Numbered from the stretch's first letter, positions 20,408 to 43,580 are shown. The stretch: 64,000 nt of DNA from Pseudomonadota bacterium (GCA_016711215.1 JADJTL010000003.1:256709-320708); one strand, 5' to 3'. The notes: generated by a model not told the origin, from the letters alone. Numbers and translations: made by a program.

Positions 20408-21321
20408 TTGTCGATGAAGCGGCGCTGAAGATCAGCGTAGGCGTCGATGCGCCGATCGCGCAAGAAGGGCCAATGGCGTCGCACCTGCTCGATGCGGGAC
20501 GACTCGATGGTCGCCAGCAGGATCTGCTCGTCCGCCGCGCCCGCCTCCGCCAGGACGACGCCCTGCGGATCGCAGACGAACGACGAGCCCCAGAACTCGA
20601 TCCCCGCGCCCCCGGCCTCGCCGGGCTCATGACCGACGCGATTGGCCGCGGCAACGTACACGCCGTTCGCCACCGCATGGCCGCGCTGGACCGTGCGCCA
20701 GGCGTCGCGCTGCACGGCGCCCTCCGCCTGCTTCTCCTGCGGATGCCAACCGATGGCGGTCGGGTAGAAGAGCACCGACGCGCCGCGCAAGGCAGCCAAG
20801 CGTGCGGCCTCCGGGTACCACTGGTCCCAACAAATCAGCACGGCGATCCGCACCTGTCCCAAGTCGAAGGCGAGGAACCCGAGATCGCCGGGCGCGAAGT
20901 AGTATTTCTCGTAGTAGCCCGGATCATCCGGGATGTGCATCTTGCGGTAGACGCCGCTCAAGGCGCCCTCAGCGTCGAGCAGCGCCGCGCTGTTGTGAAA
21001 GACGCCTGCCGCGCGCCGCTCGAAGAGTGGAACGATCAGCGCGACCCGCTCGCGCCGCGCGACCGCCGCCAGCGCCTGCGTCGTCGGGCCGGGAATCGGC
21101 TCCGCCGCGTCGAAGTGCTGCACGGCTTCGTGCTGACAGAAATAGCGTCGAAGGAAGAGCTCGGGTAGGCAGACCAACGCGGCACCCCGCCCAGCGGCCT
21201 CCCCAATCAGCTCGGTGGCGCGGCGCAGGTTGTCGGCCGGCTCGGGGCCCATCGCCATCTGCACGAGCGCGATCTTGGTACTAGTCATGATCGAAGGGCG
21301 CTCCAGTCGCCGTGGCGCCAC
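20404..21321 (-). CDS. aguB: N-carbamoylputrescine amidase (carbon-nitrogen hydrolase)
   Basis: CN-hydrolase motifs (KIALVQM...CLPELF; catalytic Cys in VLICWDQWYPE). 305 aa. Confidence 0.85.
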   Translation of the reverse strand: MAPRRLERPSIMTSTKIALVQMAMGPEPADNLRRATELIGEAAGRGAALVCLPELFLRRYFCQHEAVQHFDAAEPIPGPTTQALAAVARRERVALIVPLFERRAAGVFHNSAALLDAEGALSGVYRKMHIPDDPGYYEKYYFAPGDLGFLAFDLGQVRIAVLICWDQWYPEAARLAALRGASVLFYPTAIGWHPQEKQAEGAVQRDAWRTVQRGHAVANGVYVAAANRVGHEPGEAGGAGIEFWGSSFVCDPQGVVLAEAGAADEQILLATIESSRIEQVRRHWPFLRDRRIDAYADLQRRFIDK

Positions 21322-21343
21322 GAAGCCTCACTCCCACAACCCG

Positions 21344-23296
21344 TCACTCCAAGTAGGTGTAGCCGGCCATCCCGCTCTCGTAGAACTCGAGCAGGGAGCG
21401 TCCCTCCGCCACGCTGAGCGTGCTCGCCCGCAGCGCGCGCTCGACGTCCTGACGCATCGTCCGGACCATCTCCCCGCCGCTATAGCCGACGTAAGCGAGC
21501 ACCTCGCGCACCGAGTCACCTTCGATCACCTCGTCGATCGACCAGGAGCCTTCGGCGTCGAGACTGACCCGGACGACGTGGTTGTCGCCGAAGAGATTGT
21601 GCAGGTCGCCGAGCACCTCTTGGTAGGCGCCGACGAGACAGGCCGCCAGCGTGTAGCGCTCGTCGCCCTGAGTCTCGTGCAGCTCCAAGGTGCGCTTGAT
21701 GTCCCGCCGGTCGACGAAGTTGTCGACCTTGCCGTCCGAGTCGCAGGTAATGTCGGCCAAGGTCGCCGCCCGCGTCGGGCGCTCGTTCAAGCGGTGCAAG
21801 GGCAGAATCGGAAAGAGCTGATCGACCGCCCAGGCGTCCGGCAGCGACTGAAAGACGCTGAAGTTACAGTAGTAGGTGTCGCTCAGCCCCTCACGGAGAT
21901 CGCTGAGCTCCTCGGGCAACTCCCCGCGCTTCTCGGCGCGGGCCAGGATCTGGCGCCCGATCGCCCAAAAGAGCTTCTCCGCGTCGGCGCGCATCGGCAG
22001 CGTGAGGTAGCCGAGCGAGAAGAGGTTCATCGCCTCATCACGCGCCTGGACCGCGTCGTGGAAGGCCTCGGAGAGCCGGCGATCGGTGATGCTCTCGAAG
22101 GCATCGAGCAGGTCGAGCACGGGCTGCGGCGGGTCGTCCTCCGCGGCGACCCGCGCGCGAATGGCCTCGATGTCGGGCTCGCTGTCGAAATGTGAGCGCC
22201 CGACGACGTCGAAGACGAGCACAGTGGAATACGCCACCATCGCCCGGCCGGACTCGCTGAAGATCGTCGGGTGCGGGACGCCGGCGTCGTCGCAGACGGT
22301 CTTGATGCGGTAGATCAAATCGCTGGCGTACTCGCGGATCGAGTAGTTGACGCTCGACTCGAAGACCGAGCTACTGCCGTCGTAGTCGACGCCGAGCCCG
22401 CCGCCGACGTCGATGTACTCGATGCCGGCGCCGAGTCGACGCAGCTCGGTGTAGAAGTACGCCAGCTCCGTGACGGCGCTCTTCAGGCGCCGAATATCCG
22501 ACACCTGACTTCCCAGGTGGAAGTGGACCATCTTCAGGCAGTCGAGCATCCCGTGCCGCTCGAGCTCTTCGATCACCCGCAAGGCCTCGGCGGCCGTCAG
22601 CCCGAACTTGCTGCGCATGCCGGAGGACGAGGCCCACTTGCCGGTGCTGCGCGCGGCCGGCTTGATGCGCAGACCGACCAGGGGCCGCGTCTGATGCCGC
22701 TGCGCCTGCTCGATGATCAGCTCGAGTTCATTGAAGCGCTCGACGACCGGAATGATCCGCCGACCGAGCTTGGTCGCCAACACCACGGTCTCGATGTACT
22801 CGTGGTCCTTGAAGCCGTTGCAGACGATCGGCATGTCGTTGTGGCCGACCGTCATCGCCAAGACCGCCAGCAGCTCCGGCTTCGAACCAGCCTCCAGCCC
22901 ATAGCCGAGCTGCGCGCCGATGTTGCGGATCTCCTCGCAGACGTCGCGCTCCTGGTTGACCTTGATCGGATAGACGAAGCAGTAGCCGCCCTGGTACTGG
23001 TTCTCCTCGATCGCCGCGTCGAAGGCCTGCCGCAGCTCGTGGAGCCGGTCGCGCGCGAGGTCGGGGAAGCGCAGGAGTACGGGAGGATTGATGCCGCGCT
23101 CACGCAGGCCCTCGACCACCTCCCAGACGTCGATTCCGCGCTCGGGTTGACGCGTCGGGCAGATCGTCAGATGCCCAGTCGGACTGATGCGGAAATAGCC
23201 TTTCCCCCAGTCCTCGAGTCCATAGAGCGCACGAGCATCATCGGCAGTCCAGGCGCCGTCGAGCAGCGCATTATGACGGAGGGGGTCGGCAGACAT
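21344..23296 (-). CDS. speA: Biosynthetic arginine decarboxylase
   Basis: 650 aa. N-terminus WTADDARALYGLEDWGKGYFRISPTGHLTI and PLP-fold Orn/Arg decarboxylase body typical of SpeA. Confidence 0.9.
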   Translation of the reverse strand: MSADPLRHNALLDGAWTADDARALYGLEDWGKGYFRISPTGHLTICPTRQPERGIDVWEVVEGLRERGINPPVLLRFPDLARDRLHELRQAFDAAIEENQYQGGYCFVYPIKVNQERDVCEEIRNIGAQLGYGLEAGSKPELLAVLAMTVGHNDMPIVCNGFKDHEYIETVVLATKLGRRIIPVVERFNELELIIEQAQRHQTRPLVGLRIKPAARSTGKWASSSGMRSKFGLTAAEALRVIEELERHGMLDCLKMVHFHLGSQVSDIRRLKSAVTELAYFYTELRRLGAGIEYIDVGGGLGVDYDGSSSVFESSVNYSIREYASDLIYRIKTVCDDAGVPHPTIFSESGRAMVAYSTVLVFDVVGRSHFDSEPDIEAIRARVAAEDDPPQPVLDLLDAFESITDRRLSEAFHDAVQARDEAMNLFSLGYLTLPMRADAEKLFWAIGRQILARAEKRGELPEELSDLREGLSDTYYCNFSVFQSLPDAWAVDQLFPILPLHRLNERPTRAATLADITCDSDGKVDNFVDRRDIKRTLELHETQGDERYTLAACLVGAYQEVLGDLHNLFGDNHVVRVSLDAEGSWSIDEVIEGDSVREVLAYVGYSGGEMVRTMRQDVERALRASTLSVAEGRSLLEFYESGMAGYTYLE

Positions 23297-23359: not shown

Positions 23360-24520
23360 CTATTCGGCATGCTCGGACCCAGCACCGGCCGCCGGCAGCG
23401 GCGGCGGCGCGCCCAGGGCTGGCGCTGCACCCAGGGCCGCCAGCGCGGCCTCTTGCGTCAGCCGGGCGTTGCGCAGCAGCACCGTCAACCAGTAGTTCAT
23501 CCGCTCGGCGTTCGTCGTGTCGCGCCAGTGGCGAAAGTGCGGCGCAAAGGCTGCCAGCGGCTGGCGCCCTTCAACCGGATGGACCTCGACGGTGAAGCTG
23601 ACCTGCGCGGCCGCCAGCCAGCGCAGCGCGCTGGCGACGATCGCCTGCAGCCCCCGCGGGCCATACATCATCGGCAAGCAGTGCTGGCCCTGAAACTCGA
23701 AGGGCAAGACCACCCGCTCGAGGAAGCTGGCGTGGTCGGCCACGCCGTAGCGGTTCAGGGTCCAGAGGGGATGACCATCGTGCAGATGGAAGTGCAGGGG
23801 CTTACCGATCCGCGCGAGCGCCTCGATCTGCTCGAGCAGCCAGGGCAGAACGCTCCGCACTGCGCCCTCCACCACGGCGATCAGCGCTGGCAGCTCGTCG
23901 GCGTAGGGCGTCAAGGCGCAGACGTCGAGGCCGGGGCGGCGCGCCGCGAAGGCCACCCGCGCCTGCTGAATGCCGAGGTGACCGACGTCGATGCAGGCGC
24001 TGATCTGCGACAGCTCGGCGATGCTGGCGAACATCGCGACAAAGCGCGATGCCTCGACTCCGACCGCATACTCGACGAAGAGCAGCGGCTCGGGCCGACC
24101 CAAGGCGCGCAAGTCGGCGTCGAGCGCGCGTAACGCCGCCCGATACTCGTCCGGGCTCTCGACGAGATCCCATTGATCGTGCGCCACGAGCCCACGCACC
24201 CGCGCCGGGGATCGCCGGGCGAACTCGACGACCCAATGCCGGTCGTCCTCCCGCAGCAGGTTCAGCCCGCGCGGCAGATGCGCGTGGATCGTAAGCGCGT
24301 TGCCTGGGGTCTGCCCCACGACGTCGTTCAAGCGCTCCGGGGCGCCGGGATAGACCTCGGCGCCGATCCCCGCGCGCTCGAAGCGCAGCCGTGCCAACTG
24401 AAAGAGCGTGTCGTCGCCCTCGAGGCGCTTATCGAAGAGCCCCAGCAGGGCGGGCTGCTGCCGCGCAAGCATTGGTGCTCCGCGGCTCTCTGGCGCGCTC
24501 TCGCTGGTTGAAAGGCTCAT
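23360..24520 (-). CDS. Xylose-isomerase-like TIM-barrel protein (sugar phosphate isomerase/epimerase, AP-endonuclease-2 family), paralog 1
   Basis: Metal-site pattern EYA...CIDVGH...HFHLHDGHP...DH. Paralogous to 27249..28112. Directly downstream of GWD-like gene 1. Confidence 0.55.
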   Translation of the reverse strand: MSLSTSESAPESRGAPMLARQQPALLGLFDKRLEGDDTLFQLARLRFERAGIGAEVYPGAPERLNDVVGQTPGNALTIHAHLPRGLNLLREDDRHWVVEFARRSPARVRGLVAHDQWDLVESPDEYRAALRALDADLRALGRPEPLLFVEYAVGVEASRFVAMFASIAELSQISACIDVGHLGIQQARVAFAARRPGLDVCALTPYADELPALIAVVEGAVRSVLPWLLEQIEALARIGKPLHFHLHDGHPLWTLNRYGVADHASFLERVVLPFEFQGQHCLPMMYGPRGLQAIVASALRWLAAAQVSFTVEVHPVEGRQPLAAFAPHFRHWRDTTNAERMNYWLTVLLRNARLTQEAALAALGAAPALGAPPPLPAAGAGSEHAE

Positions 24521-24522
24521 CG

Positions 24523-27273
24523 TCAGTCCTCGTCGCCCAGTGGCGGCGACAATCCCAGTGGCGGCGACAATCCCAGTGGCGGCGACAATCCCAGTGGCCG
24601 CGACAATCCCAGTGGCCGCGACAGTCCCAGTTGCGCTCGCGTCTGCAGCGCCAGCAGCGCGTCGGCGACCAGCGCGCCCTCGATGTCCTGCGGCATTCCG
24701 GCCCGCGCTTCAATCAGTCGCGCCAACGACGCCAGCTTCTGGCCCAACCGCTCGCGCCAGGCTGGGTCGCAAAGGATCGGCATTCCAGCGTAGCGCACCG
24801 GCGCCGCGCACAAGCCGCCGTTCGCGGCAGGGCGCAGGGCCTCAGCGTAGCTGGCGCAGCCGAGCAACGTCGTCGCCCCGCCGTCCTTGCGGCAACGCAA
24901 GCGAAAGGGCGTCCCCGCGGCGCCGCTCGCCAGCGTCTCACCCAACCCCACTGCGCACTCGACCAGCGCAAAGGCACGGTCGCAGGTTAGCGGATCAACG
25001 GTGTGGATGACGAACGAAAGTTCAGCGTCGATCAGTTGCTGGACAATCACGGCCATCCGCGCAGGCGGCGCTCCAGCGAACTGCTGCGCACGCACGCGCA
25101 GCGCGCGCGCCGACCAGAGCGAGACCCAGACCTCCTTCAGCGCCCCGGCCACGGCCGCCGAGCTGACGTTCACCACGGAGCGAAACAGGCCGGCCGTCGT
25201 GTAGCCGACGCGATCCTCGGTGTCGGCGCTGGAGCGCACCACGAGCGGTGCGTCGGCGCCAAGCAGATCAACCAACCCCGCCAACAAGGCCGGTGGCACG
25301 GAAACCGCCGCCCAGAGCGCCGCGAGCGCAGCAGCCTGCGCCTCGGCCGCGCTGCCCCCCTCGGCGCGACCCTCGCCGGCGCTCGCCGCGCCTCCGCTCC
25401 AGCGCGCCCAGGCCGCGCGCCAGGGCGCAGGCTGCTCCGCGATCAGCCGCTCGAGCGCGCTGAAGGGCACGACCGCCGCGGGCGCGACGCGCAAGACGCT
25501 GGGCTCAGCGGCCGCAAGCTCGGCCAGCCAGCGGAGGCTCGCGGCCTTGGCGCCTGCGCGCTCGGCGCTCACCTCGTGCAGCGGCAGGAACCAGCGCGCC
25601 TCGCAATCAAGCGCCTCCTGCGTGGTGGCGCGGGTGATGGCCGCCGGGGCACTCGCTGGCTCCGGCGCCAGCGCGGGAGCCAAGGCCGCGGGTCTCAGCT
25701 CCACGCCATCGGCCCGCACCGTCAGCCGGAAGGGCCCCGCCGCGTCGGCGGCAGCGTCGCGCAGCAGCCCCTGCAAGGCCGCGGCGCTCCCCGCGGCGAA
25801 CGCCACGGCGTGCTGGCGCGCCCGCACGCCGAGGTGAGACAGCAGCGCCATCGGCTGACCGAGCAGCACGCCGACCACGCCCGGCGGCAAGACCTCATCG
25901 CCCGTCGCGCGGTCCACGCAGGCGATCACCGGCTCGGCGCCGGCGCCCTCGCGCGCGCCTCCAGCCTCGACGTCCTCGAGGCTGCTCGCGTGAAAGAGCC
26001 GCCCGACCACAGTCCCCGCGACCACCGCGCTCCACGGCGGCAGGCCCGCCTCGCGCCGCAACGCCGCCTCGAGCCACTCGGCGAGCTTGCTGAGCTGAAA
26101 GACGAGCGCGCCGCGCAGCTCGCCTTCGACGTAGCTGGCCAGCGCATGCGGCGCCACGCCAAGGGCGCGGCCCACGAGCTCGGCGCGCACGGCCAAGAGC
26201 GTCAGCGAGCGCGCGGCGCAGGCCGCGGCCAGACCCTGGGCCCGCTCTGTCGCGGCGAGGAGGGCCAGTAGGCGCCAGGCCTCCCCGGGCGGCGCCGCCA
26301 TCCAGCAGCGCAGATCGCTGCCCAGCGCGCGCGACTCCGCCTGCGCCACGCCGCTGAGCGCGAGCTGGTCGAGCAGCGCCCCCAGGGCCCCCAAGACGGT
26401 GCTCCACGGCGCCGGCTCCGGACTCGCCTCGAGCGCGCTGCAGAAGCGGCTCGCGACGAGAAACGCCTGGCGTTCGAGCGCCAGGTCGACGCGCTCGCAG
26501 CGCTGCGCCAGGGCGCTGGCGCTCCCGACGATCGATGGCTCGAGCCGCTCCCGCAGCGCGGTCAGCGCCCGCAGCTCCTGCAGCAGTTCCTCAGGCGTCG
26601 CGTCACGACCGAGCGCCTGCTGCTGCGCTCGTTGCAGCGCGGCTGCCGCGCTCTGGAGGTCCAGCTGCGCCTCACTCAGCAGTGGCGCGAGCTGCGCCGC
26701 GAGCTCACCCGCACCGAAGAACTGCTGCAGCTCCTCGTGGAACTTGCGGAACTCGCGCACAAAGGCCGGCGAATAGTCCGCCCCGGGCGCCGTGACGCGC
26801 TGCAGGAGCGCCGCGGAGGTCGCCAGATCCTCGGGACCCGCGCAGCGGTGGAGCTTGTTCTGCAGCGTATGCTTGATCTCGTGCTTGAGCGCCGACGGGA
26901 TGTCGTTGCGGTGCGCGATGTCGCGGATCCGGGTCAGCGGCTCGGCCGCGAGGAAGGCGCCATCGTAAGAGGGCAGCCAACGAACGATGCGGCGTAGCAG
27001 CCCTGCGTTGCCCGGGCGGCGCAGCGTGCGCAGACTCGCGTGGATACGCTGCGCCAGCCGCGCGTGATGCACCGGGCGAAAGTGCCGTCCATCCTCGACG
27101 CAGGGCAGCTCGCCCGTGCCGAGGAAGCGCAGGTAGATCCCGAGATCACGGAGCTGCTCATCGCTCACGCCGTCGGGCCCGGCCGCGCAGAGCTCCGCCA
27201 CCCACTCGAGCTTCTCGCGCCAGCTTCGCTGGCGGGCATTGGCCTCGACTAGTCGTTCGACCAGGCGGTCCAT
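24523..27273 (-). CDS. Alpha-glucan water dikinase (GWD)-like phosphotransferase, paralog 1, with a C-terminal (LGLSPP)n repeat tail
   Basis: Central GWD-like region IRDIAHRNDIPSALKHEIKHTLQNKLHRCAGPEDL. Swivel phospho-His motif LLSHLGVRARQHAV. C-terminal PPDK_N-type nucleotide-binding motif VVRSSADTEDRVGYTTAGLFRSVVNV. Domain order is His-domain then nucleotide-binding domain, as in GWD. Start uncertain; the ORF extends to 27591. Confidence 0.7.
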   Translation of the reverse strand: MDRLVERLVEANARQRSWREKLEWVAELCAAGPDGVSDEQLRDLGIYLRFLGTGELPCVEDGRHFRPVHHARLAQRIHASLRTLRRPGNAGLLRRIVRWLPSYDGAFLAAEPLTRIRDIAHRNDIPSALKHEIKHTLQNKLHRCAGPEDLATSAALLQRVTAPGADYSPAFVREFRKFHEELQQFFGAGELAAQLAPLLSEAQLDLQSAAAALQRAQQQALGRDATPEELLQELRALTALRERLEPSIVGSASALAQRCERVDLALERQAFLVASRFCSALEASPEPAPWSTVLGALGALLDQLALSGVAQAESRALGSDLRCWMAAPPGEAWRLLALLAATERAQGLAAACAARSLTLLAVRAELVGRALGVAPHALASYVEGELRGALVFQLSKLAEWLEAALRREAGLPPWSAVVAGTVVGRLFHASSLEDVEAGGAREGAGAEPVIACVDRATGDEVLPPGVVGVLLGQPMALLSHLGVRARQHAVAFAAGSAAALQGLLRDAAADAAGPFRLTVRADGVELRPAALAPALAPEPASAPAAITRATTQEALDCEARWFLPLHEVSAERAGAKAASLRWLAELAAAEPSVLRVAPAAVVPFSALERLIAEQPAPWRAAWARWSGGAASAGEGRAEGGSAAEAQAAALAALWAAVSVPPALLAGLVDLLGADAPLVVRSSADTEDRVGYTTAGLFRSVVNVSSAAVAGALKEVWVSLWSARALRVRAQQFAGAPPARMAVIVQQLIDAELSFVIHTVDPLTCDRAFALVECAVGLGETLASGAAGTPFRLRCRKDGGATTLLGCASYAEALRPAANGGLCAAPVRYAGMPILCDPAWRERLGQKLASLARLIEARAGMPQDIEGALVADALLALQTRAQLGLSRPLGLSRPLGLSPPLGLSPPLGLSPPLGDED
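24536..24631. repeat. 18-bp tandem repeat (CCCAGTGGCGGCGACAAT) x about 5.3. Encodes the C-terminal (LGLSPP) hexapeptide repeats of GWD-like 1
   Basis: Direct reading. Period 18. Two units carry G-to-C variants. Confidence 0.9.
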
Positions 27274-28112
27274 GCTCGCGCCCGTGGCTGCCCCAGCAGC
27301 TCGCATAGCCGATCCCTGGCCTCGTTGAGCAAGCGCGGCGGCCGTGGCCATTGCTCGAGGATTGCCGCGCCGGCGAAGCCGCGCGCCCGCAGCCGCGCGA
27401 TTAACCCCTGCAGCCCGGCCGGCGACTGCGCCGCCGGACCCGTAAAGAGCGTCAGGTGGCTGTCGCGATCGCCGTAGTTTTCGTGCAGGTGCAGATGAAT
27501 CAACGGCACGTGGTCGGCGAGCCGATCGACGTAGGCGAGGTAGTCGTTGCGCGTGCCGCCATAGAGGTTCGCGTGCCCGAGGTCGAGACACATGCCAGCG
27601 CGCTGCGTGCCGAACTGCGCGCGCAGCAGGGCGAAGAGCGCATTGAAGTGCTCGGGGCTGGTCTCGGGCGTGTTCTCGATCGCCAGCGCCAGCCGGTGGC
27701 GCGCGAGCTGCTGCGCAAGGTGCGCCGTCGCCTCCGCGAAGGCCTCGATGCCCTGACTGAGATCGAGGTGAAGGTTGATCAGCGTGGCGCCGAGGTCGAG
27801 CGCCAACTCGACCGACTGCTGGAGCCGCTCCGGGCCCCCGGGCTGCAGCGGGGTCGCGCGCCAGGGCGCGTGGACCGATTGCTGCACGCCGTGGCGATGC
27901 GCGGCGCTGCGCAGCTGCAGACGCTGGCCGGCGTCCAAATCGCCCTCCTCCCAGCCGAGCCCGATTTCGGGCCGATCAGGCCGATCGGGGAACCACTCAA
28001 ACGCGTCGAAGCCATGCTCGATCGCGTAGTCGAAGGGCTCGCCCACGCTGCTCGCGGCAAAGCTGGTCTGGTTTCCAATCCGGATCGGCACACGCCTCGG
28101 CGACTGTTGCAT
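27249..28112 (-). CDS. Xylose-isomerase-like TIM-barrel protein, paralog 2
   Basis: IENTPE...CLDLGHANLYG...IHLHLHENYGDRDSH metal-binding pattern. Start chosen at MQQSPRRVPIRIGNQT (ATG 28112). The ORF extends upstream to 28358. Confidence 0.6.
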   Translation of the reverse strand: MQQSPRRVPIRIGNQTSFAASSVGEPFDYAIEHGFDAFEWFPDRPDRPEIGLGWEEGDLDAGQRLQLRSAAHRHGVQQSVHAPWRATPLQPGGPERLQQSVELALDLGATLINLHLDLSQGIEAFAEATAHLAQQLARHRLALAIENTPETSPEHFNALFALLRAQFGTQRAGMCLDLGHANLYGGTRNDYLAYVDRLADHVPLIHLHLHENYGDRDSHLTLFTGPAAQSPAGLQGLIARLRARGFAGAAILEQWPRPPRLLNEARDRLCELLGQPRARAWTAWSND

Positions 28113-28204
28113 CCCTGCTCCCGTTGCCTTCACGTCGAACGCTAGCCGCGTCCGCACCCTCGCGCGACCGTCTGACGACCGACGCCGGCCCGTTCCCGCC
28201 GGGC

Positions 28205-31200
28205 CTAGAGACCCACCTGCGGCCGCGCCTGGACGACATAGAGCCGCCCCTCGCTGATCACACCCTCGATATCCTGGGGCGTGCCGAAGGCCCGCTCCAC
28301 GCTCAGGCCGATCTCTGCGATGCGACGCACCAGCGGCAGGCGTCGCGCGGCGTCCCACAAGAGCGGCTCCTCAGTATAGTCCAGCAGGCGCGCCGTCGGC
28401 GCCTCGGCCGTCACGCTGTCGTAGAGTCCAGCGCCAGCGTAGCCTGCCAGATCCTCGGCGTTGGCGTCCGAGCGGTAGATGAGCCCCCGAGCGCTCAAGG
28501 CCTCACTCTTGCTCGGATAGGCCACGATTCGCGCGCCCCCGTCGGCGTCGCCGAGGCGCGCCTTATCAACGACCACCGCCAGCGCGCGTCCCGGGTGGTT
28601 GCCGACGAGGGTCTCGCCGAGGCCCGGGACGAGCTCGAGGTAGAGTTCACGGGCGTTGCCATCGGCCGGATTGACGCTGTGCAGGACGAAGGCGTGATCG
28701 GCGGGCACCAGCGGCTGAATCAACACCGCGAGGTGGACGGCGCGGTGCGCGAGCTGCCAGTGCTGCCGCGCCTGGTAAGCGCGTTCGTTCCACTTCGAGG
28801 CCCAAACCCGCTTGATCTGCATCCAGCTCGTCGCGAGCGCGTCGCCGAGCGGCACGCCGACGGCCGCCAGCGCACTCTTCAGCGCCGGCGCCAGGGCCGC
28901 GGGCGCCTCCAGCTCCAGCACCAACGCGCGCAGGCGGCTCAGCAGCGCCACATCGATCGCCCCCTCGTCGGCGCGCCGCGTCCGCTCGGCATACTCCTCG
29001 GCCCGACCCGCGTTGGCGGGCAGCGCCAGGGCGCGCTCGAGGCCACCGAAGGGCACGGCGACGGCCGGGGGTACGATCGCCCACGAGGGCAACACCGCCG
29101 CGAGCCGCAGCAGCCCGCGCGCCTTGGCTCCCACCTGGTCCGGCCCGCAGCGCGCCAGGGGAAGGACCCAATCCTCGCCGCTCAGGTCGACGGCCGGCAG
29201 CACGAGCGGTGCGCGTGGCGTCGCTGCGGCCGCGGTGGCGCCCTCCAGCGCGGCCACCACCACATCGCCGCGCGCGTCGACCTCCAGCCGCACCTGCCGT
29301 CCCTGCAGCGCTTCGAGCTCGCTCAACTTCTGCGGCGCATAGCAGGTGGCGAAGAGCAGCCCCGCGTTGCGGGCGCGTACGGCGACGTGGGAGACGAGAT
29401 CCGTCGGCATCGGGGTGATCACCGCGGTCACCTGCTCGGGGATCTCCTCATCGCCACCGACCGAGCGCGAGAGCACGACCAGCGGCCCGCGCTGACCATC
29501 GAGTTGCAGCTCGCGCAGGGTGTCGACACAGCGCAGCTCCCCCTCCCCGCGCCCCGGACTGACCACCTGCCAGTCGCCCAGCGCAGCCACCGCCCGCAGC
29601 AAGGGGTCGAGGTGGCGCAGCAGCGCCGCGATCACGAAGCTCGGTCGCCCGCGCACCACCTCCTCGCTGAAGAGGCTGATGACCCAGGCCTCGACGCGCA
29701 GGGCGACCCCGAGCTGCTCGGCCTTGGGCTGCAGCAGCGCGTACCAGGCGTCGACCTCGCCACCGACGGCGCGGGCGACCCGCTCGACCACGGCCCGCGC
29801 ATGGCGCGCACGGTCAGCGTCGAAGGTTCCGTCGGCGCTGATGCGGCGCCAATGGCGCCGGCAGAGCTCGAGCTCCGGAAGCGCGCTGCTCAGGCCAAGG
29901 TTCTCGAGCACGTGCTCAACGAGCACCACCAGCTCTGCCAACGTCACGTCGGCGTCGAGCCAGCGCTCGACCGCGAGGCGAAGGTGGTCCTCGAGCGCGA
30001 GGTCGAGGTAGAGCAGCGCCCGCACGGTCTCGCCGCCAGCGAGGCGCCGGGCGAGGTTGCGGCGTAGGACGGTGATCGCCTCGACCACCTGCACGAGGAT
30101 GGCCGCCGGCGACGGGGACGCGGCGCCTGTGGCCCGGTCGATCCCGCGCGCGCCGCCATCCGCAGGGCTCGGGCGTGACAGGCTCAAGAGCCAGGCCAGC
30201 CGCTGACGGTCCTCGGGATCGCAGCTTTCTCGCGCCGCCGCCGCCGCCGCCGCCAGATCGTTCGCCTCATGCAACGCACGCAGCGTGCCGGCGAAGTGCT
30301 CGATGTCCTGGGCCAGGCCCGCCTTCAATCCCGGCACGAAGTCGGGCGCCGAGCGGATCGGCCGCTCGTAGCTTTCGAGGCGTTGGCGCGTCACGCCGTG
30401 TCGCTGCAGCTCGGCCCAGTACCGCAACAGATCGCCGTCGCTGCGCAAGAACGCGAGGTACGCCTCGGCGATCGCGACGTCGTCGGGCGTCGTGTTGTTA
30501 TGGAGCTTCTGATGCCACTCCTCGAGGAAGTGCCCCGCCACCTCCTTGATCCGATGGCGATGCATGATCTCGAGGATCTCGTCGCGGATGCGCTGGCCTT
30601 CGTTCGCCGCACCGACGGTGCCGAGCAACAGCCGCACGAGCGGCCGAGCGCGCGGCGCCCCCGCGAAGCGCTGCACCAGCAGCTCGCCCAAGCGCTGCTG
30701 CGCGTGGGCGAGCTCGCGCGGCTTGGTGTTGTAGCGCCGCTGCCAGTCGAGCTGGCGCAGCGCCGAGAACCGCAGCCAGACGAAGAGGTAGGCCAACGCG
30801 TCGGCGTCGGCGCCGCAGCCCTCGATCAGGGCGTGGCAGAGCTGATAGCGATGCATCAACGTCCACGACGAGCGCCCGAGCTCATGGGCCACGATCTCCT
30901 CGACGAGCCGCGCGCAGGCCACCGGCGCGCTGGGCCCATCGACCACCCCCGCTGACCGCAGCGGGACGACGAAATCACCGCCATGGTGATGCACCCAGCG
31001 TCCCCGGTCCGGCAGCAGCAAGACGAAGGTCAGCGCGGCCCAGGGACCCTGCGCCGGCAGGCGCAGGACCAGCGGCCCCTCCTCGGACCGAGGCGCGAGC
31101 GGCGTCTGCACCGCCGCCTCACCGACCGCGACCGACCCCGCCGGCCAGCACTCAGGCGGCGCCGCGTGCCAGCGCCCGTCGCCGGGCAGGCGCAGTCCCC

Positions 31201-31315
31201 AGTGCAGCACCAGCGGCCCGGGGCCTTGCGCGCTCAGGACGATCTCGGTCAGCTCAGCGTCGGCGCGCTGGTCGATCGTCATCCGGACGTCGCCCTGCTC
31301 GATTACCTGGCTCAT
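28205..31315 (-). CDS. Alpha-glucan water dikinase (GWD)-like phosphotransferase, paralog 2, with N-terminal CBM45-like domain
   Basis: N-terminal LVLHWGLRLPGDGRWHAAPPECWPAG resembles starch-binding CBM45. Central EEWHQKLHNNTTPDDVAIAEAYLAF is near-identical to the plant GWD motif as I recall it. Phospho-His motif DLVSHVAVRARNAGLLFATCY. C-terminal nucleotide-binding YRSDANAEDLAGYAGAGLYDSV. 1036 aa. Confidence 0.8.
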   Translation of the reverse strand: MSQVIEQGDVRMTIDQRADAELTEIVLSAQGPGPLVLHWGLRLPGDGRWHAAPPECWPAGSVAVGEAAVQTPLAPRSEEGPLVLRLPAQGPWAALTFVLLLPDRGRWVHHHGGDFVVPLRSAGVVDGPSAPVACARLVEEIVAHELGRSSWTLMHRYQLCHALIEGCGADADALAYLFVWLRFSALRQLDWQRRYNTKPRELAHAQQRLGELLVQRFAGAPRARPLVRLLLGTVGAANEGQRIRDEILEIMHRHRIKEVAGHFLEEWHQKLHNNTTPDDVAIAEAYLAFLRSDGDLLRYWAELQRHGVTRQRLESYERPIRSAPDFVPGLKAGLAQDIEHFAGTLRALHEANDLAAAAAAARESCDPEDRQRLAWLLSLSRPSPADGGARGIDRATGAASPSPAAILVQVVEAITVLRRNLARRLAGGETVRALLYLDLALEDHLRLAVERWLDADVTLAELVVLVEHVLENLGLSSALPELELCRRHWRRISADGTFDADRARHARAVVERVARAVGGEVDAWYALLQPKAEQLGVALRVEAWVISLFSEEVVRGRPSFVIAALLRHLDPLLRAVAALGDWQVVSPGRGEGELRCVDTLRELQLDGQRGPLVVLSRSVGGDEEIPEQVTAVITPMPTDLVSHVAVRARNAGLLFATCYAPQKLSELEALQGRQVRLEVDARGDVVVAALEGATAAAATPRAPLVLPAVDLSGEDWVLPLARCGPDQVGAKARGLLRLAAVLPSWAIVPPAVAVPFGGLERALALPANAGRAEEYAERTRRADEGAIDVALLSRLRALVLELEAPAALAPALKSALAAVGVPLGDALATSWMQIKRVWASKWNERAYQARQHWQLAHRAVHLAVLIQPLVPADHAFVLHSVNPADGNARELYLELVPGLGETLVGNHPGRALAVVVDKARLGDADGGARIVAYPSKSEALSARGLIYRSDANAEDLAGYAGAGLYDSVTAEAPTARLLDYTEEPLLWDAARRLPLVRRIAEIGLSVERAFGTPQDIEGVISEGRLYVVQARPQVGL

Positions 31316-31377
31316 CGGCTCAACACTTCATCCTGCTCGAGGCCGGCGATTCTGCCCCGGCCCTCGTCATCTTGCGC

Positions 31378-31511
31378 GACCCCATCCGCGACCCCATCCG
31401 CGACCCATCCGCGACCCATCCGCGACCCATCCGCGACCCAATCCCGACGCACGCCTGCTTGGGCCCTACGCACGCTTGCTTGGGCCCTACGCACGCCTGC
31501 TTGGGTGCGCG
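31378..31511. repeat. Two adjacent tandem-repeat arrays in the divergent promoter region between GWD-like 2 and the Ser/Thr kinase. First array is (GACCCCATCCGC)/(GACCCATCCGC) x5 at 31378-31446. Second is a 21-bp unit (GCACGCCTGCTTGGGCCCTAC) x3 at 31449-31511
   Basis: Direct reading. The first array shows period 12 collapsing to 11. The second shows period 21. Confidence 0.9.
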
Positions 31512-31609
31512 CCGCGACGGCCGCGCGCCGCTGGCGAGCGGCTCCGCCCTCCTGGGTGCTCGCATCGGACAACGCGACAATCCGGCCGGCCTTGTGGCAT
31601 CATGCCACG

Positions 31610-33202
31610 GTGCGGGCGCACGCTCACAGCCCCAACACCACGTCGTGGATGATCCTGCGCCGGCTCGGCAGCGGCTACTTCACCGAGGACGCGCTGGGCG
31701 CAGAGCCTGGGCCGACTGGCGTGACGCGCCTGGTGCTGATCAAGAGCCTCCTGCCGCGACTGCACGACGCCCGCCCCTTCGTCGGCGCCTGGCTCGCGCG
31801 CGCGACCGCGGCAATCGCGCTGCGCCACGACGGCATCGCGCGCGTCTTCGCCGCCGAGCCGCAGGGCGGCGGTGCGCGGGTCGTCACCGAGTACGTCGGC
31901 GGCGAGACGTTGCGCCTGCTGGTCAGCGCTCTGGCCGCACGCGAGCTCAGCCTACCGCTGGGCAGCGCCTGTCGGATTGTCGCGCAGGCGGCCGAGTCGT
32001 TGGCCTACGCCCACGCCCTACCCGACAGCGCCGACGATCGGAGGTCGCTGCTGCACGGCGATCTCTCGCCGGAGAACGTCGTCGTGACCTATGCCGGTCA
32101 GACCAAGCTGATCGACTTCGGGCTCGGGCGAGCCGACCCGCTGCGGAAGCACACCCCACCCAGCCGCCTGGCCAGCCGCATCGCGCACCAGGCCCCCGAG
32201 CAACTGCAGCAGCGCACGGTCGATCGACGCGCCGACGTCTGGGGCCTTGGCGTGCTGCTCTACGAGCTCCTTGCCGGCCGGCTGCTCTTTCACGGTGCCA
32301 CGCCACAGGAGGTGCTGGAAGCGGTCATGGGGGCTCCGGTGCCACCACCGAGCCGCTACAACCCGGCCATCCCACCAGAGCTTGACGCGGTCGTGCTGGA
32401 CGCGCTGGAGCGCGACGTGCCGCGGCGCATCTCGTCAGCCGCGGCGCTGCGCGAGCGGCTCGAGCAGGTCCTCGAACAGAGCGAAGGGGCGCACCCGGCT
32501 GCGCTCGGCGGCTGGCTGCGCGGCGCGCTGCGCGACTGCTACGCAGAGCGCCAGAGCATCGAACGCGAGGCGCGCACCGAGGCGATCGAGGCCCTGCGGG
32601 CCCAAGGGCCACCACCCTGGGCGACGGACGCGCCGGTCCTCATCGGCGCGCACCCTCGCTCGGCCTGGGCACGGGCCCGCAGCCGCGCCTGGGTCACCTT
32701 CCGACGCCGTCCGATCTTGGTCTCGGCGCTGCTGCTCGTGCCCGGCGCGAGCGGCCTTCTTTCGTATCGCCTGGGCCGCCACCTCGGCGCTGGCGAACAC
32801 GTGCCGTGGCGCCTCTGGCCGCTGGTCGCGCTCCTGGTCGCGGGGGGGACGCTGCTGGTCGCTTGGCGTCTGGGCGCAAAGCGCTGGCGGACCTCGCCGG
32901 CACCGGTCGCGAAGGAGCCGCTCAGCAGCGCCGAGCGCGAAGCCGCAGCGTGGCGCAACGAGGCTCAGCACCGCCGCAAGCGCCTGACGGAGGCCGAGCG
33001 CGCGCTGAGCCGCGTCGACGGCCACCTGGCCGACGCCATGGACCAGCTCGTCGAGGCGGAAGAACGGGCGAGCCAGGCGGAGCGCCTCGAGCGAGCCCTC
33101 GGCGAGGCGCACGCCGAGCTGCGGCAGCTGCGTGACTTGGCCGAGCGCACTGGGGCCTCGCGCGACGCCGCCGCTACCGCGAAGGATCGCGCCAGTCGAT
33201 GA
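31610..33202 (+). CDS. Ser/Thr protein kinase-like protein with C-terminal TM helices and a coiled-coil tail
   Basis: Kinase fold with atypical catalytic loop LLHGDLSPENVVV (HGD, Lys replaced by Ser), DFG present (LIDFG), APE present. Two hydrophobic helices. Ala/Arg-rich coiled coil at the C-terminus. Start uncertain (GTG 31610 or ATG 31649). The long upstream ORF extension runs across the repeat region and was rejected. Confidence 0.7.
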   Translation: MRAHAHSPNTTSWMILRRLGSGYFTEDALGAEPGPTGVTRLVLIKSLLPRLHDARPFVGAWLARATAAIALRHDGIARVFAAEPQGGGARVVTEYVGGETLRLLVSALAARELSLPLGSACRIVAQAAESLAYAHALPDSADDRRSLLHGDLSPENVVVTYAGQTKLIDFGLGRADPLRKHTPPSRLASRIAHQAPEQLQQRTVDRRADVWGLGVLLYELLAGRLLFHGATPQEVLEAVMGAPVPPPSRYNPAIPPELDAVVLDALERDVPRRISSAAALRERLEQVLEQSEGAHPAALGGWLRGALRDCYAERQSIEREARTEAIEALRAQGPPPWATDAPVLIGAHPRSAWARARSRAWVTFRRRPILVSALLLVPGASGLLSYRLGRHLGAGEHVPWRLWPLVALLVAGGTLLVAWRLGAKRWRTSPAPVAKEPLSSAEREAAAWRNEAQHRRKRLTEAERALSRVDGHLADAMDQLVEAEERASQAERLERALGEAHAELRQLRDLAERTGASRDAAATAKDRASR

Positions 33203-35004
33203 GAAGGCACGCCTTCGGCGCGACCGTCAGCGCCGAAGGCACCCGCTTTCGCGTCTGGGCGCCGAGGGCGCGCAGGGTCGAGTTGATCCTCGAGGGTGGC
33301 GCGGCCGCCGGCACAGCCACCACGGTCCAGCATCGCCTCCAGCGCGCCGGCGACGGTCTCCACGAGGTCTTCGTGCCGCAGCTTGGCGCGGGGGCCCGCT
33401 ATCGCTACCGCCTCGACGACGACCGCGTCGCCCCCGACCCCGCGAGCCGCTACCAGCCCGAGGGCGTCCATGGACCGTCGGCGGTGGTCGACCCGCTGGC
33501 CTTCCGCTGGCACGACGCGGCGTGGTCGGGCCGGGCCTTGTCCGAGCTCGTCATCTACGAGCTGCATGTCGGCGCCTTCACGCCAGAGGGGACCTTCGCC
33601 GCCGCCAGCGCACGACTCGACGACTTGCAGGCGCTCGGCATCACCGCGGTCGAGCTGATGCCCGTGGCGGATTTTCCTGGGCGCTGGAGCTGGGGCTACG
33701 ATCAGGCGGCGCTCTGGGCTCCGGCGCAGGTCTACGGCCCGCCCGACGCGCTGCGGGCCTTCGTCGACCGAGCCCATGCGCTCGGCCTCTCCGTGATCCT
33801 CGACGTGATCCACAACCACGTCGGGCCCGATGGCGCCTATGTGGCCGCCTTCGGCCCCTTCCTCACCCGCCGACATCACACGCCGTGGGGAGCCGCGGTC
33901 AACCTCGATCAGCGCGGCAGCGCGACCGTTCGCGCCTTTCTGATCGAGAACGCGGAGCACTGGCTCGCCGAGTACCATATCGACGCCCTGCGCCTCGACG
34001 CCATCGACGCGCTCTACGACGGCAGCGCCACCCACTTCCTGACGGCGCTGAGCACGCGGGTGGGGAGCCTTTCCGGACAGCGGCGCTATCTCTTCGCCGA
34101 GGACGACCGCAATCTCAACCTCGTGCTGCAAGCGCCATCCGCCGGGGGCTACGGCCTCGACGGCGTCTGGACTGACGACTTCCACCACCTCTTGCGGCGT
34201 CTCCTGACCGGCGAGCAGCTCGGCGCGCCTTCTGACTTCCCGGCAACCACCGCAGCGCTGGCGAAGACGATCAACGACGGCTGGTGGTACCAAGGTCAGG
34301 TGCTGCCGAGCAGCGGCCTGCCGCGCGGCAGCGATCCGCGCGCCCTTTCGCCCCAGAGCCTGATCTACTTCCTGCAGAATCACGACCAGGTCGGCAATCG
34401 ACCCTTCGGCGAGCGCCTGCACCAGACGATCAGCCCCGCGCTGTTCCGTGCCGCCTCCGCCCTGCTGCTCTTTCTCCCGCAGACGCCGCTGCTCTTCATG
34501 GGTCAGGAGTGGGCGGCGAGCGCGCCCTTCCATTTCTTCACCGATCACAAGCCCGCGCTCGGGCGCCGGGTGCGTGAGGGACGCTGGCGCGAGGCCCGCG
34601 CGCGCTTCGCGATCGACGCCGGCACGACGCTTCCCGACCCGCAGGATCCCAGCAGCTTCGAGCGCAGCAAGCTCGCTTGGGCCGAGCGCGGACGAGCGCC
34701 GCACGACGGCACGCTCCAGCTCTACCGCAAGCTCCTTCGACTGCGCCGCGAGCTCAGCGGACGGGCGCAGGCCGAGAGCCCCTCCGAGGGCGCTCTGTTG
34801 GTGCGACGCGGCGCCTATACGCTCGCCGTAGCGCTGCGCTCGGACCTCGACCTGCCGCTGCCAAGCGCGGGTGTGGAGCGCCTCTCGACCGCTGGCCCTC
34901 CCGGGACTGGCGCGCCGGAGGCGCCGCTGACTCAAAGTGGGCACCTCCACTTCGCGGCGCCCGCCGCCGTGATCTTCGGACCGGCAGCGGGTCTTGGCGC
35001 CTGA
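33199..35004 (+). CDS. treZ: GH13 malto-oligosyltrehalose trehalohydrolase-like alpha-amylase-family enzyme
   Basis: N-terminal CBM48-like FRVWAPRARRVELIL. GH13 catalytic regions (GLSVILDVIHNHVGPDG; ALRLDAIDAL; YLFAEDDRNL; FLQNHDQVGNR). 601 aa. Symbol assigned on family resemblance only. Confidence 0.75.
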   Translation: MRRHAFGATVSAEGTRFRVWAPRARRVELILEGGAAAGTATTVQHRLQRAGDGLHEVFVPQLGAGARYRYRLDDDRVAPDPASRYQPEGVHGPSAVVDPLAFRWHDAAWSGRALSELVIYELHVGAFTPEGTFAAASARLDDLQALGITAVELMPVADFPGRWSWGYDQAALWAPAQVYGPPDALRAFVDRAHALGLSVILDVIHNHVGPDGAYVAAFGPFLTRRHHTPWGAAVNLDQRGSATVRAFLIENAEHWLAEYHIDALRLDAIDALYDGSATHFLTALSTRVGSLSGQRRYLFAEDDRNLNLVLQAPSAGGYGLDGVWTDDFHHLLRRLLTGEQLGAPSDFPATTAALAKTINDGWWYQGQVLPSSGLPRGSDPRALSPQSLIYFLQNHDQVGNRPFGERLHQTISPALFRAASALLLFLPQTPLLFMGQEWAASAPFHFFTDHKPALGRRVREGRWREARARFAIDAGTTLPDPQDPSSFERSKLAWAERGRAPHDGTLQLYRKLLRLRRELSGRAQAESPSEGALLVRRGAYTLAVALRSDLDLPLPSAGVERLSTAGPPGTGAPEAPLTQSGHLHFAAPAAVIFGPAAGLGA

Positions 35005-37779: not shown

Positions 37780-40083
37780 CTACTCCGCCTCAGACGCCTC
37801 AGACCTGGGCTCGGCCTCGGACGGGGCGCCGTCCTGCGCCGGAGCGAGCAGGCTGTCCGCCGGCGTCGCTTCGCGCGCGAAGAAGAGCGCACCCAGCGGC
37901 GGCAAGGTCAGCGAGAGCGACTGCTCCATGCCGTGGCAGGGCATCGGCTCACTGACCACACGCCCGCAGTTGCCGACATTCGTCCCGCCGAAGCTCTCAG
38001 CGTCGCTGTTGACCAGCTCGAGGTACTCGCCCGCGGCTGGCACCCCGATGCGGTAGTCCCTCCGCGGCACCGGCGTCAGGTTGAAGACGCAGATTATCTC
38101 GCCCCGCGGACCGCGGCGCAGGAAGGAGATCACCGATTGCTCGGAGTCGGTGCAGTCAATCCACTGAAAGCCGCGAGGCTCATGATCCCAAGCCCAGAGC
38201 GCATCGTGGCCGAGGTAGAGGTGACCGAGCTGCTGGACCAGCCGCTGAATACCACTATGGCGCGGCTCGGCGAGCAGCTGCCAGTCCAAGCTGGCATCGT
38301 GGCGCCATTCCGACCACTGCCCGAACTCGGCGCCCATGAAGAGCAGCTTCTTGCCCGGATGCGCATAGAGGTAGCTCAAGAGCACGCGCAGCCCGGCGGC
38401 CTTGCGCCAGTCGTCGCCCGGCATCTTCGAGAGCAGCGCGCGCTTTCCGTGCACGACCTCATCGTGCGAGAGCGGCAGGATGAAGTTCTCCGTCCAGGCG
38501 TAGAGCATGCTGAAGGTCAGGTTGTTGTGATGGTACTTGCGATGGATCGGATCCTTCGTGAAGTAGTGCAGCGTGTCGTGCATCCACCCCATGTTCCACT
38601 TGAAACCGAAGCCCAGGCCGCCCAGGTAGGTCGGCGCCGTGACGCCACCCCAGGCCGTAGACTCCTCGGCGATGGTCAGCACGCCAGGGAAGCTGCTGTA
38701 GACTTGCCGGTTGAGCTCCTGCAGTAGTGAGATGGCCTCGAGGTTCTCGCGCCCACCGTACTGGTTCGGGATCCACTCGCCATGCGGGCGGCTGTAGTCG
38801 CGGTAGATCATCGACGCGACGGCGTCGACGCGCAGGCCGTCGAAGTGGAACTGATCGAGCCAGTAGAGCGCGTTGGCCAGCAGGAAGGCGCGCACCTCGT
38901 GGCGCCCGTAGTTGAAGATCAGCGTGCCCCAATCGCGGTGCTCGCCCTCGCGGGGGTCGGCATGCTCGTAGAGCGCCGTGCCGTCGAACCAGCGCAGCGC
39001 GTAGTCGTCCTTGGGGAAGTGCGCGGGCACCCAATCGAGCAACACGCCAATACCGTGCTGGTGGCAGAGATCGATGAAGTAGCGCAGATCGTCGGGCCCA
39101 CCGTAGCGCGCCGTCGGCGCGAAGTAGCCCGTGGTCTGGTAGCCCCACGAGAGGTCGAAGGCATGCTCGGCGATCGGTAGCAGCTCGAGATGCGTGAAGC
39201 CATGGATCCGGCAGTGCTCGATCAGGCGCGGCGCGAGCTCACGGTAGGTCAGCCAGCCGTCCTCGCGCTCGGGCACGCGCATCCACGAGCCGAGATGCAC
39301 CTCATAGATCGCCATCGGCTTCTGCCGCGGGTCACCGACCGCACGAGCCTGAATCCACGCGTCATCCTGCCAGGCGAAGCTGCCGAGCCCCTGAACCACG
39401 GACGCGCTCTTGGGCCGCAGCTCCATCGCGAAGGCCATCGGGTCGGTCTTGAGCCGTAGGTTGCCGTCGCGCAGCTTGAGCTCGTACTTGTAGATCGCGC
39501 CGGCACCCACGCCCGGCAAGAAGAGCTCCCAGACCCCCGAGGCCCCCAACCGGCGCATCGGGTGGCGGCGCCCATCCCAGCCGTTGAAGGTCCCGACCAC
39601 GCTGACGCGCACGGCGTTGGGCGCCCAGACGGCGAAGGAGGTTCCAGCCACCCCATCGACCGCGCGCGGATGCGCGCCGAGCCGCTCATAGAGGCGGTAA
39701 TGGGTACCCTCACCGAAGAGGTGCAGGTCGAGCTCGCCGAGCGTCGGCGCGAAGCCATAGGGGTCTGCCAGGGGCGGCGCGCTGCCGTCGGCCAGCGACC
39801 ACTCGACCTCGTAGCTCAGCGGCAAGCTCGCGTCGGGCAGGAAGCGGGCAAAGAGCCCTCCGCTATGCACCTGCTGCATGGGCTGGGGATCGCTGCCGGC
39901 AACGTGCAGCTGCGCGCCAAGCGCCTCGGGAGCGAAGGCGCGCACGACCAGTCCCTGCCGCCCCTGCCAATGCAGCCGATGGACGCCAAGCAGCCCGTGC
40001 GGGTCGCTGATTTCGGCGCGGACGAGACGCTGCACCGCCTGTGGATCACCTTCCAATGAGTGCTGGACGCCTGTCATCTGCAT
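37780..40083 (-). CDS. glgB: 1,4-alpha-glucan branching enzyme
   Basis: 767 aa. N-terminal CBM48 segment plus GH13 catalytic core ([17 protein letters not shown]; [15 protein letters not shown]; [12 protein letters not shown]; FMGAEFGQ). Typical GlgB architecture. Confidence 0.9.
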
Positions 40084-42515: not shown

Positions 42516-42592
42516 GCGCCGGCAGGCCGCTCAGCGGGGTGGCCTGCACCAGGGCCCGGCGCGCAGCGGCAGCGGGCGCCGAGATGCGCGCG

Positions 42593-43414: not shown

Positions 43415-43467
43415 CTGGGTTCCATCTGGGTTCCGTCGGGGTTCCGTCTGGGTTCCGTCTGGGCCCG
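43414..43467. repeat. 11-bp tandem repeat (TCTGGGTTCCG) x about 5
   Basis: Direct reading. The period is not a multiple of 3, so it is unlikely to be coding. Confidence 0.85.
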
Positions 43468-43580
43468 CGACCACGCCGCGTGGCGCGGCGGCAAGGCGCG
43501 CGCTGGCCTGGCAACCCACGAGTCTGTAGAATGTCGCGCTATGCGGTCAAGCGGCGATCTACGGGGAAAGCGCTGAGCTG

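Follow-up and report, generated by a model that had tools for sequence, protein, structure and literature searches.

Glucan phosphorylation is understood in plants and is tied to Lafora disease in humans. The locus described here raises the question of whether a bacterium encodes both of the dikinases known from plants, the α-glucan, water dikinase (GWD) and the phosphoglucan, water dikinase (PWD), and what the genes that accompany them may do. The locus lies in a stretch of 64,000 nucleotides (the window) from a Pseudomonadota bacterium (GCA_016711215.1 JADJTL010000003.1:256709-320708), with a G+C content of about 70% across its length. A prediction made from this sequence alone (the original prediction) had described two plant-type GWD paralogs in tandem. 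Both of the large minus-strand open reading frames (ORFs) that it named are present. They are part of a four-gene module (23360..31315, minus strand) that comprises a GWD-type dikinase, a TIM barrel protein (TIM-A), a PWD-type dikinase and a second TIM barrel protein (TIM-B). The genes and domains of the module are listed below, with lengths and positions in amino acids (aa), the strongest support in parentheses, and carbohydrate-binding modules abbreviated as CBM.

28205..31315, minus strand: GWD-type α-glucan, water dikinase homologue, 1036 aa (Pfam, phmmer, tree)
30959..31306, minus strand: single CBM45-like Ig domain of the GWD-type enzyme, aa 4-119 (Pfam Ig_N_CWD1, 64.6 bits)
29585..30913, minus strand: helical central (acceptor) domain of the GWD-type enzyme, aa 135-577 (phmmer against the central domain of potato GWD1, StGWD1, 9HA9/9QVI, 263 bits)
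29249..29572, minus strand: phosphohistidine domain of the GWD-type enzyme, aa 582-689 (Pfam GWD1_pHisD, 100.6 bits)
28217..28819, minus strand: matched part of the nucleotide-binding domain of the GWD-type enzyme, aa 833-1033 (Pfam PPDK_N, 80.8 bits)
27249..28112, minus strand: TIM-A, a 287-aa TIM barrel of the xylose isomerase/endonuclease IV (Endo IV) type (frame switch in third-position G+C, GC3; Pfam AP_endonuc_2)
24523..27273, minus strand: PWD-type dikinase, 916 aa, with central, phosphohistidine and nucleotide-binding domains (Pfam, hhalign, BLASTP, AlphaFold2)
25786..26034, minus strand: phosphohistidine domain of the PWD-type enzyme (Pfam GWD1_pHisD, 47.7 bits)
24631..25263, minus strand: matched part of the nucleotide-binding domain of the PWD-type enzyme (Pfam PPDK_N, 82.9 bits)
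23360..24472, minus strand: TIM-B, a 370-aa divergent TIM barrel of the same superfamily as TIM-A (alternative start at 24520)

The tandem placement of the two dikinases holds in that both are on the minus strand, but they are not adjacent, as the GC3 frame plot and Pfam place the TIM-A gene (27249..28112) between them. The coding frame switches at ~27250, and we therefore recognize a separate TIM-A gene and a shorter first paralog. The latter had been given as a 1022-aa ORF at 24523..27591 (in its numbering, GWD1_pHisD matches 520-602 and PPDK_N 777-987). This ORF is over-extended, its first 106 codons being an out-of-frame read of the TIM-A gene. The gene, named PWD-type here, starts with the ATG at 27273 (MDRLVERL, 916 aa), and 27306 is a possible alternative. 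Its start overlaps the stop of TIM-A by 25 nt in a different frame (27249-27273), and its stop is followed by the TIM-B start after 2 or 50 bases, depending on the start chosen. TIM-B (23360..24472), which the original prediction had passed over, is a member of the same conserved module.

Within the linker between TIM-A and the PWD-type gene (27249-27273), a shift of one base would restore a fused ORF, and most relatives are fused. We considered the ORF 27249..28358 as a frameshifted N-terminus of the PWD-type protein and rejected it, because the split is shared with an independent metagenome-assembled genome (MAG) and with two other unfused proteins; we therefore treat the split as real. The idea is partly true in an evolutionary sense, given that most relatives are fusions.

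The GWD-type protein is identical to the hypothetical protein IPL40_10185 of a MAG named 'Proteobacteria bacterium' (a 100% match to P0001). It has the domain order of GWD (EC 2.7.9.4), with a CBM45-type module, a helical central domain, a phosphohistidine domain and a C-terminal nucleotide-binding domain, and this is the order of potato GWD1 (StGWD1, 9HA9/9QVI). The CBM45-like N-terminus that had been proposed for it is recovered by the Ig_N_CWD1 match at aa 4-119. This Pfam family describes the N-terminal Ig-like domain of GWD1, a region classed as CBM45. The potato central domain (9HA9) matches aa 135-577 with an E-value of 3.7e-77 (phmmer) and ~36% identity, and the WHQKLHNNT.PDDV motif and the SHVAVRARN histidine loop are common to both. 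The plant motif that the original prediction named also aligns, EEWHQKLHNNTTPDDV standing opposite QEWHQKLHNNTSPDDV of potato GWD1. The predicted catalytic His643 (codon 29387-29389) is within LVSHVAVRARN, of which LVSHVAVR is encoded at 29375-29398, and S642-H643-V644-A645 is invariant in 22 GWD-type homologues. The protein is nearer to plant GWD (263 bits with the StGWD1 central domain alone) than to plant PWD (154 bits with the whole squash protein, 24% identity). It differs from plant GWD1 in having no transit peptide and in being encoded in a bacterial operon beside a TIM-barrel gene.

The PWD-type protein was used to search 1.84 billion representative proteins, and this search found the squash protein (Cucurbita pepo, XP_023526016) named phosphoglucan, water dikinase. 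The two align over aa 7-881 with 409 bits and 32% identity (BLASTP). The central, histidine and ATP domains are homologous to those of plant PWD (GWD3, EC 2.7.9.5) over the full length, the RSSA..ED and GLGE.LASG motifs occur in the same order, and the LSHLGVRARQ loop is identical in squash PWD. The LLSHLGVR part of the sequence is encoded at 25822-25845 and contains the predicted catalytic His480 (codon 25834-25836), with S479 and H480 invariant in 24 homologues. The catalytic histidine and the nucleotide-site residues are invariant in both dikinase families. The family profile of the PWD type aligns to that of the GWD-like family over aa 18-888 (hhalign, E 8e-87), and the PWD-type enzyme thus has the same three-domain core as the GWD-type enzyme. 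Its AlphaFold2 model (mean per-residue confidence, pLDDT, 82; predicted template modelling score, pTM, 0.81) contains ~20 helices, then a beta-rich histidine domain, then an ATP-grasp domain. In a Foldseek search of this model against the Protein Data Bank (PDB), the nearest structures are the ATP domains of rifampin phosphotransferase and phosphoenolpyruvate (PEP) synthase; only ATP-domain relatives were found and the GWD1 central domain was not returned. Likewise, phmmer gave no match between the PWD-type protein and the StGWD1 central domain. The lack of a CBM noted earlier for this paralog agrees with Pfam, which finds none.

Two further observations concern the PWD-type proteins. The C-terminal tail of the enzyme in the window, (PLGLS[R/P])n, is encoded by an 18-bp tandem repeat of 5.6 copies (24536..24635, minus strand; 95% matches; Tandem Repeats Finder and translation). 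It is a strain-specific, low-confidence appendage that is modelled as disordered (pLDDT ~30) and is absent from the sister MAG (L002). Elsewhere, PWD-type cores carry other N-terminal modules, namely a CBM45-like Ig domain (P0341) or CBM20 (P0295, P0307 and P0311), and in the tree these proteins fall, with 48% support, in a loose group together with squash PWD and part of the TIM-fused bacterial proteins.

Both dikinases are members of the GWD family. As the original prediction had stated, the phosphohistidine domain precedes a C-terminal nucleotide-binding domain in both, and Pfam detects no PEP-utilizers_C barrel. This order is the reverse of that in PEP synthase and rifampicin phosphotransferase. 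These two families and PPDK share with the proteins in the window the ATP-grasp nucleotide domain, the swivelling histidine domain and the dikinase chemistry, whereas the latter have no PEP-utilizers_C barrel or rifampicin-binding domain. When scored with the NCBIfam models for PEP synthase and rifampicin phosphotransferase, the dikinases give matches in the nucleotide domain alone, at 57-101 bits against cut-offs of 598-1700. Together with the reversed order, this leads us to reject both identities.

The pair corresponds to the plant GWD/PWD pair, as had been proposed for it. A neighbour-joining tree of 378 central-domain columns (300 bootstraps) included one plant GWD (potato, central domain only, from 9HA9) and one plant PWD (squash). 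The two types are separated in 100% of the bootstraps, bacterial proteins falling with potato GWD1 in the GWD-type clade and with squash PWD in the PWD-type clade. The scores agree with this division (263 vs 154 bits for the GWD-type protein, 409 bits with squash PWD for the PWD-type protein). With one plant sequence per type, the tree cannot tell whether genes passed from bacteria to eukaryotes or the reverse. That bacteria simply acquired the genes from algae in recent times is unlikely, given the breadth across phyla described below and the presence of both dikinase types.

The remaining two genes of the module lie between and after the dikinases. TIM-A has a gene of its own in the window, whereas most other bacteria encode it as a fusion with the PWD-type enzyme. 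It passes the Pfam threshold for AP_endonuc_2 (PF01261; 93.6 bits vs a gathering score of 31.1). Its only NCBIfam matches are weak, to CbiR (45 bits, cut-off 105) and to deoxyribonuclease IV (endonuclease IV, 15.7 bits). CbiR is a cobamide phosphodiesterase and a metal-dependent member of the AP_endonuc_2 superfamily (PMC7733943). Twelve residues of TIM-A are invariant in 27 sequences (H81, H115, E146, D177, H180, H206, H208, H210, E211, D217, H219 and E253). The metal ligands of Endo IV in E. coli are H69, H109, E145, D179, H182, H216, D229, H231 and E261, for which we propose H81, H115, E146, D177, H180, H208, D217, H219 and E253 as the counterparts in TIM-A. Six of these (H81, H115, E146, D177, H180 and E253) align opposite H69, H109, E145, D179, H182 and E261.

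TIM-B has the fold of the AP_endonuc_2 superfamily and a detectable profile relationship to it. A Pfam search with TIM-B gave no match, and a profile search against PDB sequences returned only noise. In two loci, TIM-B is fused to a C-terminal GH13 domain (hDGE_amylase/alpha-amylase; L047, 16448-18844, and L072, 6792-9188). Neither TIM protein matches a characterised subfamily of a superfamily that includes endonuclease IV, CbiR, MJ1311, ketose 3-epimerases and xylose isomerase. The setting also differs, as it is one of glucan genes and not of DNA repair, cobamide or free-sugar metabolism.

To place the module among bacteria, we scanned one genome per species in 185,579 species and kept the best 80 loci. 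Relatives were detected in 314 of the species. The best 80 are all from MAGs or uncultured bacteria and belong to Verrucomicrobiota, Nitrospirota/Thermodesulfovibrionales, Desulfobacterota, Scalindua and Acidobacteria. Across these five groups the gene order is repeatedly GWD, TIM-A (in most cases joined to PWD), PWD, TIM-B. Gene order was counted in the 70 of the 80 loci in which the sequence continues for 1 kb or more past the GWD gene. A TIM gene immediately follows the GWD gene in 57 of the 70. These comprise loci with a GWD gene followed by a TIM-PWD fusion (31 loci, 24 of them with TIM-B next), split genes as in the window (two loci, including the syntenic sister MAG L002), a free-standing TIM-A only (23 loci), and GWD, TIM-A and TIM-B (one locus). 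In a further locus the GWD gene has no adjacent TIM gene, and a PWD-type gene and TIM-B are on the opposite strand ~8 kb away (L013).

Most PWD-type homologues are fusions of ~1150 aa with the AP_endonuc_2 barrel at the N-terminus, while P0121 and P0122 are unfused. In one locus (L040, 3250-7785), an ORF of 1511 aa covers TIM-A, the PWD-type dikinase and TIM-B together. The closed Nitrospiraceae chromosome CP070632 has GWD and TIM-A near 35 kb, and an unfused PWD-type gene and TIM-B at 2.11 Mb. This chromosome divides the module into a GWD and TIM-A pair and a PWD and TIM-B pair, an arrangement suggestive of a dedicated TIM-barrel partner for each dikinase. The whole 20-kb neighbourhood of the cluster in the window is syntenic in the independent MAG L002. 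GWD-type homologues are also abundant in metagenomes.

The treZ-like gene and glgB that the original prediction had reported nearby are both identified, 2-9 kb from the module:

33199..35004, plus strand: malto-oligosyltrehalose trehalohydrolase, TreZ (TIGR02402, 631 bits vs a 539-bit cut-off)
37780..40083, minus strand: glycogen branching enzyme, GlgB (Pfam GlgB_N, CBM_48, Alpha-amylase and Alpha-amylase_C)

Genes of glucan metabolism also accompany the module in other bacteria, being found within 10 kb in 27 of the 45 loci that are at least 15 kb long. One locus (L082) has the order GH13, DUF4912, GH57 branching enzyme, GlgA, GWD, TIM-PWD fusion, TIM-B. Another (L083) has GH13, GWD and the TIM-PWD fusion, with TIM-B, GlgB and GlgA further along. 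The DUF4912 gene of L082 (1839-2777), between the GH13 and GH57 branching enzyme genes, has no homologue in the other 80 loci by tblastn. By visual inspection of the N-termini, no obvious signal peptide is present in any of the four module proteins, so the target is most likely the cell's own storage glucan.

The best explanation of the module, and a probable one, is that it phosphorylates the cell's own cytoplasmic storage α-glucan; the TIM barrels may reverse this modification. By analogy with the plant enzymes, each dikinase would take the β-phosphate of ATP onto its conserved histidine (His643 or His480). The histidine domain would then swing to the helical central domain and hand the phosphate to a glucosyl hydroxyl, presumably at C6 for the GWD type and at C3 for the PWD type, the latter acting on glucan that is already phosphorylated. 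The phosphate esters would loosen packed glucan chains and make them reachable for degrading enzymes. TIM-A and TIM-B would be histidine-rich, metal-dependent phosphoesterases that take the phosphates off, TIM-A for the GWD step and TIM-B for the PWD step.

In this role the TIM barrels would stand in for SEX4 and LSF2, the dual-specificity phosphatases of plants, to which they are unrelated. The proposed removal of C6 and C3 phosphate to enable glucan breakdown, with one phosphatase per dikinase, resembles what SEX4 and LSF2 do in plants and recalls laforin. SEX4, LSF2 and laforin are CX5R cysteine phosphatases, while the TIM barrels are predicted metalloenzymes of unrelated fold and chemistry. 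That the TIM barrels remove the phosphates added by the dikinases is suggested by the pairing pattern and the conserved residues; we hold this part tentatively, as a possibility somewhat short of even. We propose phosphatases because a glucan chain has no free carbonyl, because Endo IV-type sites hydrolyse phosphate esters of sugars, and because the window has no dual-specificity phosphatase motif ([HV]CxxGxxR, CX5R type, searched in all ORFs of at least 100 aa in the 64 kb). The nine proposed ligand counterparts and the weak match to the phosphodiesterase CbiR would fit this reading. A wider version of the proposal is doubtful. It would have, in many bacteria, a full and self-sufficient cycle of glucan phosphorylation and dephosphorylation with two TIM metalloenzymes as phosphatases, a GWD/PWD duplication that took place in bacteria, plant and algal dikinases that both descend from such a cluster instead of arising with the plastid, and perhaps a denser, starch-like glucan that is mobilised only after phosphorylation.

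Several observations weigh against the proposed phosphorylation and dephosphorylation of a storage glucan. A phosphatase fused to a kinase appears futile at first sight, and 12 of the 70 loci have a GWD gene without an adjoining TIM gene. The resemblance of TIM-A to E. coli Endo IV (query identical to 1QTW) is moderately significant (hhalign, E 1.5e-5, 79% probability), and the HLHLHEN..D.DSH segment, which would supply the last three ligands, lies one residue out of register opposite HLND...DRH of Endo IV. Among solved structures, TIM-A is closest to MJ1311, whose deposited name is 'D-tagatose 3-epimerase-like protein'. As for glucan binding, Pfam finds only one Ig_N_CWD1 domain in the GWD-type protein, whereas plant GWD1 has two CBM45 modules and most bacterial homologues have two Ig_N_CWD1 copies (alignment consensus; P0005). 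The PWD-type protein has no N-terminal CBM20 by Pfam, in contrast to squash PWD, which has CBM_20; the bacterial proteins have the Endo IV-like TIM barrel at that place. Finally, a 2025 paper treats as open the question of whether bacterial glycogen carries phosphate at all (PMC13011383).

The epimerase-like structure also speaks for a different role of the TIM barrels, in which the dikinases phosphorylate an α-glucan and the barrels are isomerases, epimerases, dehydratases or lyases acting on a breakdown product, or non-catalytic phosphoglucan-binding partners that replace CBM20 in targeting. The fused TIM-A does occupy exactly the position of CBM20 in plant PWD. We nevertheless regard this as unlikely. 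The isomerases and epimerases of this superfamily require a free carbonyl, which a glucan chain lacks, and the module has no conserved oxidoreductase that could act as a partner. For binding alone, nine invariant predicted metal-ligand positions would be unnecessary, and TIM-A also occurs free-standing beside GWD. It is less probable still that the dikinases have been recruited to another acceptor, be it a polysaccharide, a sugar or a small molecule bound by the TIM barrel, which would then be an acceptor domain like the PEP/pyruvate barrel of PPDK. Dikinases of the superfamily do have acceptors as diverse as rifampicin, polyphenols and pyruvate (PMC13553574), and the PWD-type enzyme, which has no CBM, is in most cases joined to a TIM barrel. 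Yet both enzymes keep the full-length central domain of the GWD family, which a structural paper on potato GWD1 (JBC 2026; bacteria are not mentioned in it) assigned to acceptor binding. Moreover, the GWD type carries CBM45-like modules, and the GH13 fusions and the GlgA, GlgB and GH57 neighbours indicate an α-glucan.

The module would be an artefact if mis-binned algal or plant DNA were involved, or if the genes were a decaying pseudogene pair frameshifted between TIM-A and the PWD-type gene. The 25-nt overlap of the two frames in a family where most relatives are fused could be read in this way, and a 100%-identical PWD-type protein was not returned by the protein search. We find this hardly credible, as the module sits on a 774-kb contig, has a G+C content of ~70-72% and a high GC3 throughout, as in the flanking bacterial genes, and retains all of its catalytic residues. 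The synteny with L002 extends over 20 kb and includes the same split, and P0121 and P0122 are unfused as well. Phosphorylation of a storage α-glucan by the two dikinases, perhaps reversed by the TIM barrels, is the explanation we prefer.

Other genes and repeats surround the module. Between the GWD-type start (31315) and a divergent Ser/Thr kinase ORF, the region 31375-31505 contains an 11-bp unit (CGCGACCCATC) repeated ~6.5 times, directly followed by a 21-bp unit repeated three times. No tandem repeat is present in the matching region of the sister MAG L002. These repeats and those of the PWD-type tail were left out of the system because they are absent from the sister MAG. Signalling genes are located around the cluster (30983-36667 and 40170-44384), including a Ser/Thr kinase, a sigma-54 enhancer-binding response regulator, a PP2C phosphatase and a second Ser/Thr kinase of 786 aa with a c-di-GMP-binding motif. 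Downstream on the same strand (19235-23296), an arginine decarboxylase (SpeA-type), a carbon-nitrogen hydrolase and an agmatine deiminase form a putrescine pathway. These genes are syntenic in L002 and not in the other phyla, and are probably unrelated neighbours. Further away, 52990-56163 encodes a 1057-aa protein that consists mostly of RCC1 repeats (RCC1-like domain, 327 bits), which are unusual in bacteria.

The original prediction called such a bacterial system previously undescribed, which is too strong. Relatives occur in 314 species, and JGI labels the GWD-type homologues 'alpha-glucan,water dikinase' and the PWD-type homologues 'phosphoglucan,water dikinase'. Cenci et al. 2018 included bacterial GWDs in a tree, named them in one figure legend and suggested lateral transfer (PMC6260743). 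A suggested role in development or sporulation is not supported, as nothing in the analysis bears on it. What is new is a plant-type two-dikinase machinery in a bacterial operon with partner enzymes that are not seen in plants. Within a literature coverage that is incomplete, we found no published description or test of the bacterial cluster, the PWD-type enzyme, the TIM partners or the function of bacterial GWD/PWD. The two TIM-barrel partners, the most distinctive feature of the module, had been passed over.

The compact bacterial GWD and PWD enzymes may be of use in the production of phosphorylated starch. TIM-A and TIM-B are candidate members of a new glucan phosphatase class. For animals, no glycogen-phosphorylating enzyme is known (PMC13011383). 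In bacteria, the question of glycogen phosphorylation can be approached directly through this conserved cluster, which encodes dikinases of both types. GWD had so far been known only from starch-accumulating organisms, and a common origin with the primary plastid had been proposed for it (PMC6260743). The presence of the module in bacteria leaves the view that GWD arose with the primary plastid and is confined to starch accumulators open to re-examination.

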